From: Escherichia phage vB_EcoM-ZQ1
Sequence record: MW650886.1
Length of the DNA stretch: 64,000 nt
Reading direction: 5' to 3' (one strand)
Below the pieces are notes generated by a model. That model did no database searches. It was not told the origin of the DNA and was given only the letters and a program-made list of their open reading frames with translations. Each line of letters starts with the position of its first letter. The stretch's first letter is position 1. This document shows positions 10,146-19,802 of the stretch, piece by piece. The position numbers and the translations under genes were made by a program.

Positions 10146-11923
10146 CTCAAAGAGGAGAGGACTTTTCAAATTAGCTGGGCTGCAGTAAAGTATTAAGCGT
10201 GAGGCGAACAACGCATCGAGTTAGGCATCTAAAGCCGACCTCGCTAATCCCAGTCTCAGGGGCATGCGTGAATAGAGGCGTGATATCCACCTTGCATGGT
10301 GTCAGTGGACGCACTTGACCGTCGGAGAACGAAACTCCCTGTTGTAGCGTGATTAGCTCAGAATCAGAGAGCACCCTGTTGGCAAGTCGACACCAACATA
10401 TAAGGGGAGGTCGGGGGCGCTAATCTCCATCACGCCGGCAACATTATGAGTCTTCCACAGAGGGTTCATAATGTTGCGTCAAAGGGCAACAAGGTTCCTG
10501 TTGGTTGAATTAACTTGATTCATAGTTCCTACTGATCTTCCCGGATTCGAAGGAGCACCAACAGGCGAGGCCGGATGCGTAAGTTCCGGTAAATCGATGG
10601 TGATACCCTCGCCAACAAAAATAAAAGGTTTTATCAATAACGGGTTACAAAGTATAGTTAACCCACTGAAGCGAAAAGCTGTTTGGGCATTAGACAAACA
10701 CTTCGATGTGAACCCAGGACATGGCGTCTTGTGCTCAAACAGGTTTTCGTTTTCGTTGTGAGTGACTTTGCGGGTTTTTAGAAACTGACCAAGCAAATAA
10801 CTGCTAATGATTCCGAAGTTCTGATGGCGGCGTAACAGCCTATAAGTCAGTGAGGTCTTCCGATTCCTCATCACCAAATTCGGCGCACTAAAATAGACGG
10901 GAGGGTGTGATTAATAATCTCCCGTCGACAATGCCGTTATATCTGACTGTCCAAAGGGGATAAGCTCCTGAGTAAGCAGAGGTGGGTTGCCTAAGTCAGA
11001 TGGGATGTAAGGTCAGCGCTGGCCAAGCATTTGGGTTCGACTCCTAAAAACGGCTCCACATCTTTGAGGATATTCTCACGAGTATCTTGAAAGATGTGAG
11101 CGAAGTCTTGCCATCAGCCCTGATCCCTGGCAGGTGAAGGGCACACAAATCGAAGTGCCTTGACAATTTATCTTAAACCCAAAGGTTGATCTACAAATTG
11201 GACGGCCAATCCGGTGGACGATAACAGCATATTGGGCTATACTGTTGAGTCAGGGCACTTCGATTTGTGAACTTGAGAGAGCGTTGGGTGAAATAGACCA
11301 TGCCTTGCAGATTGCGATGCCTACACATTCCGGACACTGGTGGGCACCAAGAAGAACTCAGTAGCAGACGAGCCATCAGGGTTAGCTACCCGGCGCGGCG
11401 AGGACTGGGAGGCCGAACTAAGGGGAAACCCGAGACAGGCGTAGTATTCTCAAGTTCACAAAATGAAGAGCATTTAAAGAGTTCGATTCTCTTTCAGGCC
11501 ATTCGTGGTGTGATGTGAGTCATGAATGTTCTTCATCTTTGGGTGATTCTATGTTGCCGGGCTATCAACCCATGCTTGCTAGAGCAACCAGCCAGCCTCG
11601 TTTGGTCCGAGCGTTAGAGGACAAGTTGCTTCTACATGGAAGCTGCGAGTTGCGACATTGGTTGCAACTTTGATGGCTCTGGATTTTATAAACCATGTCT
11701 ATGGGTGACGCGGGATCTTTAGTACCAGAGCTATCAAAGTTGTGTCCAACCCGATCTTACAAGCCCGTATCCCGGTCTGGTTAAGACTTGTAAGTGGAAA
11801 GCCCTGGAAAAATAAACGCCTGTGGCGAGGCTATGGTGCAAGCCAAAGACCCACAGAAGCGCATGCCGTGAGGCAGCACAAACAGGCATGCATGAACTGA
11901 TCATGTACAAACGGGATAAAGGG

Positions 11924-11954: not shown

Positions 11955-12031
11955 GGTCCTGTAGCTCAGTCGGTTAGAGCAGTGAACTCATAATTCATTG
12001 GTAGTTGGTTCAAATCCAACCAGGATCACCA
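11955..12031 (+). tRNA. tRNA-Met (anticodon CAT; could also be Ile-lysidine type)
   Basis: Hand-folded cloverleaf: acceptor GGTCCTG/CAGGATC, D-stem GCTC/GAGC, anticodon loop CTCATAA, T-arm GTTGG-TTCAAAT-CCAAC, encoded CCA. Confidence 0.85.
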
Positions 12032-12283: not shown

Positions 12284-12372
12284 GGAAGGTTGCCCGAGAG
12301 GTTTAAGGGACTCGACTGCTAATCGAGTGGGGCTTTTAGCCCCCGAAGGTTCGAATCCTTCACCTTCCGCCA
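12284..12372 (+). tRNA. tRNA-Ser (anticodon GCT), type II with long variable arm
   Basis: Acceptor GGAAGGT/ACCTTCC, D-stem CCC/GGG, anticodon loop CTGCTAA, variable arm TGGGGCTTTTAGCCCCC, T-arm GAAGG-TTCGAAT-CCTTC, encoded CCA. Confidence 0.85.
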
Positions 12373-12588
12373 AATTACGGTCGTGACTTCCTGAAGAGTT
12401 AGAAGATGTGCATGTCGACTCTCTCGTAATCGGGTGTTTAGGAAGTTAAGAAAATCGCGGCGAGGATAGTGAAATGCAAATAGCTTTCTCTACGTCGACG
12501 ACTTCAGGTTCGACTCCTGACGCGCTCTCCCATAGGGTAGTACCAGTGCAAGCGTGTAGTCTTTCAACCCATCCCATCGATGTGGTGT

Positions 12589-12620
12589 AGCCGGATATCC
12601 TATCCGGCTTTCTTTTTATC
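12589..12620 (+). terminator. Intrinsic terminator downstream of the tRNA cluster
   Basis: Stem AGCCGGATA / TATCCGGCT with loop TCC followed by TTCTTTTTATC. Confidence 0.6.
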
Positions 12621-17201: not shown

Positions 17202-18619
17202 ATGACCGTTTTCTATACGAACGTTGCCCGCAGGGGTAATGACCTGTTGATTCGAATTGCAGATGACATGGGTAATCGCCGTCTGTTGAAAAAGAAATTC
17301 GAACCTACTCTCTATTTACCCACGGCTGACTATTCAAATGTTGAAAAGGTCGGTCTTCTCAATGAACCCCTGGTAGCCAAGCAGTTCCCTTCCATGCGTG
17401 ACGCTGACAACTATCTTGAAGAGTACAAGGAAGTCCAGGGTGCTGCCATTTACGGGCAGACCGATTATGCATACCAGTTCATCGCCCATAGCTTTCCTGG
17501 AAAGATTGAGCCGGATTATTCCAACATCCATATTGCTAACCTCGATATCGAAGTGTTCTCCGCCGGGTGGAAAGATGGAAAGATGACCAAAGGTCCATTC
17601 CCTCACCCAACCATTGAGCAGCAGACGTTCAAAGGGAATGAGGCGCGCATTCGCCGCTTCCATCAGCAGGTACTGGCCAACCATGACTTCATCCGTGAGC
17701 ACTTTCCCAGTTCCTTTATCAGCAACAACGTCACTGATCAGTTCCCTATCATTGACAGCAACGGCAAGATCACCCAAGACATGAATGCGGCGTTCCCCAT
17801 TACCCTGATCCAGCTTCAGGATATGGCGACCAATAAGTTCATGGTCTGGGGTATGCCCTGTGCCAAAGACCGCAATAAGTTCGCATACGACACCGAAGAC
17901 AAAGAGATCGGCGGCCTTGAGGTTGTTTATCAGGAGTTCACCACAGAACAAGATCTGCTGCGCTCGTTCCTAGACTTCTGGTCGGAGCGTCAGTTTGATG
18001 GCTGGACTGGCTGGAACATTGAGACGTTTGATAGCCCTTATCTTGTTGAGCGCATGAATCAGGTTCTGGGTGAGGCTGAAACGTCGCGCCTCAGTCCTTG
18101 GGGTATCATTAAGAAGCGTATCATTCGCGATAAGAAGGGCGATATCACGACGTATCAGTTCGTGGGTTGCCCTATGCTCGATTATATGCAGATCTACAAG
18201 AAACACACGTACACCACCCGTGAACGCTACTCTCTTGACTGGATTGCGTATTGTGAGCTGGGTGAGAAGAAGATGGACTACAGTGAGAGCAAGTCGCTCT
18301 TTGATCTGTACTTCAACGACTACTGCAAACACACCCGATATGGTATCAAAGACGTTAAGCTGGTATGGCGACTTGAACAGAAGCTGCGCCTGCTCCAACT
18401 GATGTTCGTCCTGGCCTACCGCACCAAGTCCAACTATGAAGACGGTCTGGGCACTGTGGCTCCGTGGCTGGCCATGTGCTACTATCGCCTGTACGAGAAG
18501 GGGATAGTGCCTAAGATCCAGCGTGTATACGATGGTCCGACCGACTTTGAGGGTGCATACGTCATGGATGTGACACCAGGAATCTACTTCTGGGTCTTCT
18601 CGGAAGATTTGAACTCCCT
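17202..18619 (+). CDS. DNA polymerase, family B (T4 gp43-like), exon 1 (N-terminal exonuclease half)
   Basis: Exo I motif NLDIEV; ORF terminates 5 codons after the sequence DLNSL, which is the first half of polymerase motif A. Confidence 0.75.
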
Positions 18620-19802
18620 TAAGTTAGCAGCATAGGGGCTTTGGTTGGCGACAACCATCGAATAACTCTCTTAATTGCTGGGAAGTCTCTTTAGAGATAA
18701 TCAGCAGCCAAGGTCGGCCACGAAGACCTAAATACTCTGTAACCACGGTGAAGGAGTAAGGTCATGAAGGAAATCAAGAGTCTGTTCTATCGAAATGATT
18801 TGGTAATTGAAGAATCTAAGATAGAAGAATATTTGAAGTTCTGTAAGGAACACAGTTATGATGGTGATGGATACAGTGAACGCCATCATGTACTGCCTCA
18901 GGCACATTATCCTGAGTTCTCTAAAGAAGAATGGAACATCGTAAACCTGTTGTACAAAGATCATGTGGAGGCTCATCGCCTATTGCATGAAGCATTACCA
19001 GAAGATAAATCAGCGTTCTTCGCCTACTTCATGATGAAATCCCATAACGGGGAACTAAGTGAGGAATTGAGAAGAAAGAATGTTGAAATGTTGACGGGAG
19101 AAGGGAATCCTTCGAAGAGGGAAGATGTCAGAAGAAAGATATCCAAATCTAAGAAGGGTGTTAAAAGGGCAGATATGAAGGGTAAGGCTTATTTCGGCGC
19201 TGATAAAGAAACAGCTGAAAGAATTAAAGCCAATTCCAGTCTTGTTCACAAAGGCACTGTCCCCGTAAGACTCCTGGATGGTAGTGTTATCAAAGTTTCA
19301 ACGCAAGACCCGAGATATTTGAGTGGTGAGTTGAAATGTATAATAGGTGCAAAGAAAGGTCAGGTGGGACCAAACACCGACCCAAAAGCGAAGAAGAAAT
19401 TTAAAGATTCTTTAGAGAAAAGGAAGGAAATGTTTGCCAGAATGAGTGGGGAAGAAATAACCACTCATTGCTTGACACAACAGGATTTAGGTAAGAAGAC
19501 TGTAGAGTGGGGCAAGTTGGCAAGAAACTTCAAACGACTCTTTGGTTACGCTGGGTTAAACCCAGATGATTTCCTTGAAGTAGTGGGCGACAAGGTTCAA
19601 CGACTATCGAAAGCAAGACCGACGACTAAGCGTCTGATCTGAAGCGAGTAGAGTAGGGGCAAGCGCCTCGAAATGGAGAGAATCTCTAGACAGTTCTGGA
19701 GATTGTGATATAGTCTGGCCTGTATGGTGACATACAGCAGTGTTCGGTAAACTGAATGACGAACACGGGGGATGAAATAGCGAGCATCCCTGAACACAAG
19801 CG
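18620..19802 (+). mobile_element. Putative group I intron carrying an HNH homing endonuclease, inserted in the DNA polymerase gene
   Basis: Splicing 18619 to 19803 restores the frame and yields DLNSLYPHII (motif A); exon 1 ends in U, intervening sequence ends in G; internal ORF has an HNH motif. Confidence 0.6.
18764..19642 (+). CDS. HNH homing endonuclease (intron-encoded)
   Basis: HNH motif ERHHVLPQAHYPEF...NIVNLLYKDHVEAH; NUMOD-like repeats GEGNPSKREDVRRKISKSKKG; SD AAGGAG. Confidence 0.7.
   Translation: MKEIKSLFYRNDLVIEESKIEEYLKFCKEHSYDGDGYSERHHVLPQAHYPEFSKEEWNIVNLLYKDHVEAHRLLHEALPEDKSAFFAYFMMKSHNGELSEELRRKNVEMLTGEGNPSKREDVRRKISKSKKGVKRADMKGKAYFGADKETAERIKANSSLVHKGTVPVRLLDGSVIKVSTQDPRYLSGELKCIIGAKKGQVGPNTDPKAKKKFKDSLEKRKEMFARMSGEEITTHCLTQQDLGKKTVEWGKLARNFKRLFGYAGLNPDDFLEVVGDKVQRLSKARPTTKRLI

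Follow-up and report, generated by a model that had tools for sequence, protein, structure and literature searches.

Among the transfer RNA (tRNA) genes of phage T4 lie those for species 1 and 2 (rnaC and rnaD), stable RNAs of about 120-140 nt that are matured by the tRNA machinery, and the mascRNA of MALAT1 is a non-decoding tRNA-like fold at which tRNA-processing cleavage sets the end of the neighbouring RNA. Plant mitochondrial t-elements are also tRNA-like folds that do not decode, and their cleavage by tRNA enzymes sets the ends of neighbouring transcripts (PMC1920247). In published censuses of transfer-messenger RNA (tmRNA), phage ssrA is recorded only from cluster C mycobacteriophages, Bacillus phage G and mycobacteriophage DS6A, the last having a 'TLD-only' RNA (TLD, tRNA-like domain; Hudson, Lau and Williams 2014, PMC4131195; PMC11915505). 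Here we describe a further RNA to be set beside these, encoded at 10933-11058 on the plus strand of a 64,000-nt stretch (the window) of the DNA of Escherichia phage vB_EcoM-ZQ1 (record MW650886.1). We put at slightly better than even (about 0.55) the probability that this module is a conserved gene for a processed, CCA-ending, non-decoding tRNA-like small RNA of 126 nt, derived from tRNA-Thr(UGU).

The module is like T4 species 1 and 2 in its size and in its location within a tRNA cluster; among the organisms tallied in a BLAST search with the module there is no T4-type phage, and the comparison is by sequence only. It is like the t-elements and mascRNA in being a non-decoding tRNA-like fold at the end of another RNA, with a predicted RNase P site 6 nt past the last hairpin of that RNA (the 'tag RNA' described below), but those elements are eukaryotic or organellar, whereas the CCA of the module is encoded and nearly all of its bases are conserved, beyond what punctuation by itself would need. 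With the tRNA-like domain of tmRNA, including the RNA of DS6A, it shares a phage-borne, anticodon-less structure with acceptor stem, T-arm and CCA, and in addition it adjoins a tmRNA-like tag frame. However, it has no G3:U70 pair and mostly no A73, resembles tRNA-Thr in sequence more than it does any tmRNA model, carries two extra arms in place of a D-loop and helix 2, and does not have the tag frame between its halves.

The 3' part of the module can be read directly from the sequence. A T-arm at 11031-11047 (stem UUGGG/CCUAA, loop UUCGACU; in the DNA, TTGGG at 11031-11035, TTCGACT at 11036-11042 and CCTAA at 11043-11047) is followed by a 3' acceptor strand, AAACGGC (11048-11054), a discriminator U (11055) and an encoded CCA (11056-11058). 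All of these, together with a GCCGTTA located at 10933-10939, had been picked out in an earlier, sequence-only reading of the window, and all are present. There are four occurrences in the window of a composite motif consisting of a T-stem with five of five pairs, a TTCRANT loop, seven nucleotides, any base and CCA, where 200 dinucleotide-preserving shuffles gave 0.01 on average and never more than 1; three of the four matches lie on the plus strand of a single RNA island, in the module and in genes for tRNA-Met and tRNA-Ser. The fourth (18590-18634, minus strand; GGGAG-TTCAAAT-CTTCC ... CCA, with its T-arm-plus-CCA-like site at about 18618) is outside the island in apparent coding sequence, and is probably a chance match.

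The sequence-only reading took the T-arm and CCA to be without a matching 5' half, and dismissed GCCGTTA as too far upstream. This judgement is overturned by the fold, which was tested on an alignment of 16 distinct sequence variants from related phages. GCCGUU at 10933-10938 is the true 5' acceptor strand: it pairs with 11049-11054, all six pairs being kept in 16 of 16 variants, and so closes a cloverleaf-like RNA of 126 nt. Within this stem the pair 5:68 passes from U-A (13 variants) through U.G (one) to C-G (two), and the intervening arms also covary. Arm A (10941-11001), in the position of a D-arm, is closed by an 8-bp helix (10941-10948 with 10994-11001) in which GOT/N6 and MK-13 show double-sided changes at three pairs, and has a conserved interior made up of a D-loop relic (GGGGAUAAGC) and a relic anticodon hairpin, CUG-AGUAAG-CAG (10968-10970 with 10977-10979). 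Arm B (11005-11030) is a two-step hairpin (11005-11008/11027-11030 and 11011-11015/11020-11024) with the tetraloop GCGC; it abuts the T-arm, and shows one pair changed on both sides (A-U to G-C) and several wobble-preserving changes (U.G/U-A, C-G/U.G). The T-loop and three G-C pairs of the T-stem are invariant, as is the CCA, while the discriminator is U in 14 of the variants and A in two. Over the whole alignment, pairing holds in 95.7% of cells. Double-sided changes are seen at five pairs, of which three are in arm A, one is in arm B and one is acceptor pair 5:68; with slid partners as controls there were 0-1 such pairs, and none of 500 shuffles reached the observed value. A covariance model of the module (R1) scores the window copy at 158 bits. 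Of the canonical features of a tRNA, the closing acceptor stem, the 5-bp T-stem with its 7-nt T-loop, the discriminator and the CCA are all present, whereas the usual cloverleaf length (70-95 nt), the D stem and the 7-nt anticodon loop are not.

The 5' limit of the unit can be placed by comparison with relatives. BLAST alignments to relatives break at 10929-10933, the proposed 5' end, and at least six unrelated sequences precede G10933 across the phages. In the window nothing extra intervenes; CBA120 has an insert of 92 nt that itself bears a T-arm and a CCA; KP6F1, Vi01 and N6 have a stem-closed insert of 157 nt; MK-13 has a related insert together with a duplicated segment of the tag RNA's hairpin; in P01 there are about 380 nt; and in GOT the context is different again. 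From these breakpoints and changes of context, it follows that the unit starts at G10933. The base preceding G1 is U in five of the six contexts.

What kind of tRNA was the ancestor? The sequence-only reading had guessed at a degenerate tRNA or tRNA-like module, and this guess was borne out by a gap-tolerant pairwise alignment of the module with 141 ARAGORN-called phage tRNAs of 20 isotypes, in which the six best matches were all to tRNA-Thr(UGU) (42.9, against 31.7 for the next isotype). Similarly, when a covariance model of the module was run over 40 loci, its only non-self matches were to true tRNAs, headed by the tRNA-Thr genes of P1-like phages. Like phage and enterobacterial tRNA-Thr(UGU), the module has the acceptor GCCG..CGGC, U8-A9, GG in the D-loop relic, ..GUAAGCAG.. 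of the anticodon arm, the AUGU/GUC bases of the variable loop, the T-loop and an encoded CCA, and at both ends it presumably resembles E. coli thrW. Unlike tRNA-Thr(UGU), it is 126 rather than 76 nt long, has a long-range 8-bp helix in place of the D stem and an extra hairpin before the T-arm, carries a discriminator U in most copies, and goes unrecognized by ARAGORN or by Rfam RF00005. The alignment places insertions at four sites and shows that three bases of the anticodon loop (positions 32-34) have been lost, leaving a relic loop of 6 nt; the module therefore cannot present an anticodon or decode. By this alignment it is a remodelled tRNA-Thr, in which the acceptor/T-arm 'top half' has been kept and a 'bottom half' is new.

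The standard detection programs miss the module. ARAGORN, proposed with the sequence-only reading as a check, does not call the module as tRNA or tmRNA in default, tmRNA, intron or mitochondrial modes, and Rfam gives no tRNA or tmRNA call on it at gathering threshold or at E<=10 (including RF00005). At a lowered threshold ARAGORN offers a tRNA-Leu at 10982-11058, which we rejected as an ill-fitting chimera of real parts.

Conservation, the other property looked for, is pronounced. In a BLAST search with 10880-11110, 245 phage records matched, nearly all of them at 93-100% identity across 10930-11075, and the module, its T-arm included, is present in some 230-245 genomes of Ackermannviridae, where it is unannotated (almost none of the matching records has an annotated feature there). 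The surrounding region is 96-97% identical to that of Escherichia phages A221 and vB_EcoM-RPN242 and has homologues in Kuttervirus, Agtrevirus and Taipeivirus genomes (about 155 kb), and by this homology the source phage is a member of the Ackermannviridae (Vi1-like). Across these three genera the module retains 93-100% identity while its flanks fall to 72-83%; even the nearby tRNA-Met diverges more (GCTGG-TTCAAGT-CCAGC CAGGGTC in Kuttervirus, GTTGG-TTCAAAT-CCAAC CAGGATC in the window). Matches in IMG/VR are all on contigs of Ackermannviridae size (154-162 kb), no match was obtained when one genome for each of 185,579 species of bacteria and archaea was scanned with a pattern, and no copy was found beside the tag RNAs of other phage families. 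On these searches, the module is confined to the Ackermannviridae.

How might such an RNA be made? We infer that the module is transcribed, processed and accumulated. It would be transcribed from the plus strand within an island of about 2.1 kb, together with the tag RNA, tRNA-Met and tRNA-Ser. RNase P, for which U is the preferred base at -1, would cut at U(-1)/G1, and the same cut would make the 3' end of the tag RNA, 4-6 nt past its last hairpin. The 3' side would be trimmed to the encoded CCA, as for the neighbouring tRNAs, and the product would then accumulate as a stable RNA. The fold retains the tRNA 'top half' (an acceptor stem of 6-7 bp, the T-arm, the GG D-loop relic, the discriminator and CCA), with the D stem and anticodon stem replaced by the two new arms and the anticodon loop collapsed to 6 nt, precluding decoding. 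At the least, the module would be a tRNA-type punctuation mark of the island. In other phage families T-arm modules or real tRNAs directly flank the tag RNA, some T-arms lying immediately before its 5' tail, which fits such a punctuation role. Because its unpaired bases are nearly invariant and its conservation exceeds that of tRNA-Met, the module may in addition engage a factor that handles tRNAs, candidates being threonyl-tRNA synthetase (ThrRS), EF-Tu, SmpB or a host enzyme that targets tRNAs.

Several observations weigh against a conserved functional RNA gene. The genomes that contribute double changes are only three and are related to one another (GOT/N6 and MK-13, with Vi01 intermediate), so that few independent events support the fold. 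In most relatives the T-stem has CCCUA, giving U.U at its fourth pair. The folding energy of the module is not better than that of shuffles (z -0.4 to -0.9); its thermodynamic stability is uninformative. Phages of the same family that have lost or truncated the module (SKML-39, 0507-KN2-1, fGh-Ecl02) are viable. Finally, the island being mosaic, high identity across genera could reflect a recent exchange of cassettes and not selection.

These points lead to the alternative that fares best, namely that the module is a decaying tRNA-Thr pseudogene, or a hitch-hiking cassette without a function of its own, whose apparent conservation is mimicked by recombination of the island, possibly stimulated by homing endonucleases. 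The island is indeed strongly mosaic, with cassette-like insertions and deletions and with HNH endonuclease genes within or adjoining it; it holds several degenerate T-arm relics, and the anticodon loop of the module has been destroyed. Moreover, the module is absent from SKML-39, Serratia phage 2050H1 and Erwinia phage phiEa2809 (all Ackermannviridae), only UAAAACGGCUCCA of it is left in Klebsiella phage 0507-KN2-1, and in fGh-Ecl02 its 5' half has been replaced. Against this, every helix is kept in a divergent lineage (GOT/N6, MK-13 and Vi01, 81-88% identity) by compensatory or wobble-preserving changes, and few changes are disruptive; no variation is seen in the variant alignment at the encoded CCA, in the T-loop or in the long interior that is unpaired, and the boundaries of the unit are exact in six upstream contexts. 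We therefore regard a functionless relic as unlikely.

Two of the remaining alternatives turn on the RNA encoded just upstream of the module. This tag RNA (10742-10926, plus strand), which resembles the mRNA-like part of tmRNA, is unannotated and separately conserved, both at codon level and by covariation. Its 5' end is a tail (GGUUUUCG..GUGAC), followed by a hairpin and then by A-rich AAUAACU, which leads into a frame of ten codons, GCU to GCG (10803-10832), with UAA at 10833-10835, specifying ANDSEVLMAA, a degradation tag in the style of tmRNA. The bases before the first codon (AUAAAU|GCA, AAUAACU|GCU) resemble AAUAGUC|GCA of E. coli tmRNA. The last codons form part of a hairpin (10821-10824/10847-10850 and 10829-10831/10838-10840) whose loop holds the stop codon, as in helix 5 of tmRNA. 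Beyond this come a covarying H-type pseudoknot (10851-10855/10866-10870 and 10860-10863/10880-10883) and a terminal hairpin (10896-10926) with the conserved loop GUGUGAUUAAUAAU. The module starts about 100 bases downstream of the frame, G1 being 6 nt past the end of the terminal hairpin at 10926.

Across 57 loci the tag frame always has ten codons and a stop. Its 24 nucleotide variants encode 13 tags (for example ANDNTFLAVA, ANDDVVLMAA, ANEEMYLAVA and ANDDLMMVAA), and two further tags come from one Serratia and one Erwinia phage. Entropy by codon position is 0.67/0.42/1.00 bits, the third position being the most variable, and synonymous changes are seen at Ala1, Asn2, Leu7 and Ala10. Read from the sequence, the frame has no in-frame start codon upstream, and there is an in-frame stop eight codons upstream. 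In 24 diverse sequences, 17 of 30 pairs of the structure change on both sides (76 cells), compared with 5-11 pairs in slid controls, and 0 of 500 shuffles did as well. The tag RNA is thus real on these comparisons, and appears to be translated. It is about 165-185 nt long across its settings, which besides Ackermannviridae include N4-like and P22-like phages of enterobacteria, prophages, and 350 of 5,426 complete E. coli genomes. In HK620 it lies between qut and the late terminator, in P1 and P7 downstream of the C1-controlled operator Op(ban) and upstream of tRNA genes, and in several siphoviruses directly after a sigma-70-like promoter (as read from the sequence). Outside the Ackermannviridae it is unannotated in nearly all settings. 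Neither there nor in the Ackermannviridae does it have a tRNA-like domain of its own. We found no description of it in the literature searched for phage tmRNAs or tag RNAs, which yielded only the cases from mycobacteriophages, Bacillus phage G and DS6A.

The possibility, raised in the sequence-only reading, that the motif belongs to a larger RNA can be put in terms of tmRNA: the module would be the tRNA-like domain of a phage tmRNA, in one piece (10678-11058) or as the two-piece or 5'-extended partner of the tag RNA, and once aminoacylated would enter stalled ribosomes and hand over the ANDSEVLMAA frame. This idea gains from the apparent translation of the tag RNA, from the position of the module (it follows the tag RNA, on the same strand and at a distance of 4 to about 380 nt, wherever it is present except in GOT) and from the anticodon-less combination of acceptor stem, T-arm and CCA, just as in a tmRNA tRNA-like domain. 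In addition, ARAGORN with its threshold lowered to 70% (-ps70) reports a tmRNA at 10678-11058 with the tag ANDSEVLMAA, and there are weak, sub-threshold Rfam matches to permuted tmRNA models on the tag region of every relative. A larger RNA is suggested by that low-threshold call, but it fails the tests that define a tmRNA. There is no RF00023 match at all, and the tmRNA_permuted, alpha and beta models score 15-25 bits, against gathering scores of 47-84, on the tag region only, none of them covering the module. The alanine identity of tmRNA (G3:U70, ACCA) is wanting, since pair 3:70 is C-G, not G.U, in 16 of 16 variants and the discriminator is mostly U. The tag frame (10803-10835) and pseudoknot lie outside the closed acceptor stem, on its 5' side, which is the topology of neither a standard nor a permuted tmRNA. 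A two-piece tmRNA has its acceptor piece encoded upstream of the coding piece and forms its acceptor stem between the two, but the module follows the tag RNA and builds its acceptor stem entirely from strands of its own.

Nor do the details of the ARAGORN call support it. Its 5' strand, GCUGUUU, is the 5' arm of a local hairpin (10679-10741, plus strand) formed by CUGUUUGGGCA...UGCUCAAACAG and followed by a U-rich run. This hairpin is conserved in phages that lack the module, its distal stem covarying between genera, in Kuttervirus and in a Serratia phage without the module (Klebsiella phage 0507-KN2-1 has an HNH endonuclease gene in its place). The call was accordingly rejected as a chimera of real parts. 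A register resembling E. coli tmRNA, CGGCUCC-A, was also tried and rejected: no GGRGCYG 5' strand was seen when the upstream sequence was read, and 11055 varies between U and A like a discriminator, with CCA invariant. Furthermore, the module is closest in sequence to tRNA-Thr and not to tmRNA; the tag RNA occurs with an intact frame and no module in SKML-39, 0507-KN2-1 and the Serratia and Erwinia Ackermannviridae, as well as in P1-like, P22-like, N4-like and siphoviral phages; and duplex prediction between module and tag RNA is within about 2 sd of shuffles, with no specific helix. A tmRNA domain therefore seems to us a doubtful interpretation, more so than a relic.

A looser relationship between the two RNAs would be that they form a two-part phage device for rewiring the trans-translation of the host. 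This is suggested by the 5' tail of the tag RNA, which is conserved (it consists of GUUUUCGU, a variable linker and GCGACU; 10742-10770, plus strand, in the window) and is complementary to nt 86-105 of E. coli ssrA, a stretch running from -4 relative to the resume codon through codon 6 (ssrA at 94-456 of locus L147). Longer tails could form 10+3+6 = 19 bp with ssrA, and the variants of the second tail motif (GUGAC, GCGGC, GCGAU) can all still pair with GUCGC through G.U. As little as 0.5% or as much as 4.5% of random 363-nt segments do as well, z relative to shuffled tails is -1.7 to -4.1, and an alternative prediction has the tail pairing within the tag RNA, with GAAAC. The case for an antisense role of the tail toward host tmRNA is suggestive. 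The tag RNA could in that event mask the frame of host tmRNA, ride on tmRNA-SmpB and substitute a phage-specified tag, and in Ackermannviridae the module would be a dedicated tRNA-like handle, or a decoy for SmpB or EF-Tu. Duplex prediction gave no specific signal for pairing of the module itself with E. coli ssrA, and a functional link between the module and the tag RNA is unproven, because the latter occurs without the module in so many other phages. Of such a device as a whole we are more sceptical still. Most improbable of all is a functional tRNA able to decode once introns or insertions, be it one or several, have been removed from its transcript. This would account for two tRNA-Thr-like ends and some 50 extra nt, but ARAGORN finds nothing in intron mode, Rfam gives no group I or II intron match, and, with extra bases at no fewer than four sites and three anticodon-loop bases deleted, no single excision restores a cloverleaf.

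Returning to the small-RNA gene favoured here, its surroundings are also of interest. No credible protein gene was found between about 10470 and about 12610, and we treat these 2.1 kb or so as a plus-strand island of RNA genes. The sole long open reading frame (10479-10877, minus strand) is without a Pfam match, and it lacks collinearity with the genes annotated in relatives. On the same strand as the module are genes for tRNA-Met(CAU) (11955-12031) and tRNA-Ser(GCU) (12284-12372), both with an encoded CCA and both found by ARAGORN and Rfam, and the island is closed by a terminator-like hairpin and T-run (12589-12609). In several deposited genomes the island is covered by strings of 'hypothetical protein' calls of 30-70 codons, overlapping the tag RNA and the module (for example GEC_vB_N6, locus L152, 487-1349; also L003 and L001); these are probably artefacts of annotation.

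Directly 3' of the CCA, at 11059-11096 (plus strand), a hairpin formed by CAUCUUUGAGG...CUUGAAAGAUG serves as an insertion slot: in relatives its stem encloses inserts of 60-150 nt, some with a T-arm (GCGGG-TTCGAGT-CCCGT; L003 1710-1795, L017 from 1477 onward, L018). On the other side of the module, the 92-nt insert of CBA120 (L017 1255-1346; also L005, L007, L008 and L013), which lies between the tag RNA and the module and is absent from the window, has the T-arm GAAGG-TTCGAGT-CCTTC, CUCCAAU-C-CCA and a GAAA-capped 7-bp hairpin, and is a further predicted CCA-ending tRNA-like unit.

Other tRNA-like remains are scattered through the island. A second relic (10566-10614, plus strand; GGCGAGG..CCUCGCC-A) has lost its T-arm in the window but keeps it in Kuttervirus (L003 1196-1266), where one record annotates a 67-nt 'tRNA-Ala', and in Serratia phage 2050H1 (L148, about 688-780) it has a full D arm and an expanded anticodon arm. 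Two orphan T-arms on the plus strand, at 11477-11493 (AAGAG-TTCGATT-CTCTT) and 12504-12520 (TCAGG-TTCGACT-CCTGA), are not called by ARAGORN; the former is conserved in Agtrevirus and Taipeivirus relatives, and both possibly represent further tRNA-derived modules. There is also a perfect 16-nt inverted repeat, CACAAATCGAAGTGCC at 11144-11159 and GGCACTTCGATTTGTG at 11254-11269 (plus strand; 94 nt apart), both arms of which have changed together in SeKF_19 (CGCAAATCGAAGTTCT / AGAACTTCGATTTGCG), and which looks like another stem-closed RNA module. In the Taipeivirus island, Rfam detects STnc100 (RF02076) above its gathering score (L016 2114-2328, L020 2079-2293, L021 1911-2125), with no counterpart in the window. 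Finally, the tag RNAs at loci outside the Ackermannviridae (L022, L024, L026, L074, L112 and others) have variable inserts on either side, enclosed by recurrent long stems of GGUAAGAGCA...UGCUCUUUCC to which CACAAC/GUUGUG is often added. In some of these a T-arm adjoins the 3' strand, and they look like tRNA-like modules with closed, extended acceptor stems.

The module is an unannotated, tRNA-derived, tRNA-like small RNA in a well-studied family of phages, and several hundred sequenced phages of therapeutic or biocontrol use (Vi01, CBA120 and their relatives) carry it, either unannotated or under spurious 'hypothetical protein' calls. It would represent a phage tRNA gene rebuilt as a non-decoding RNA that still presents an acceptor/T-arm face to the tRNA machinery of the host. 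Its main interest, however, lies in its position beside a novel, tmRNA-like tag RNA: if either of the two RNAs acts on trans-translation, it would provide viruses with a new way to manipulate ribosome rescue.

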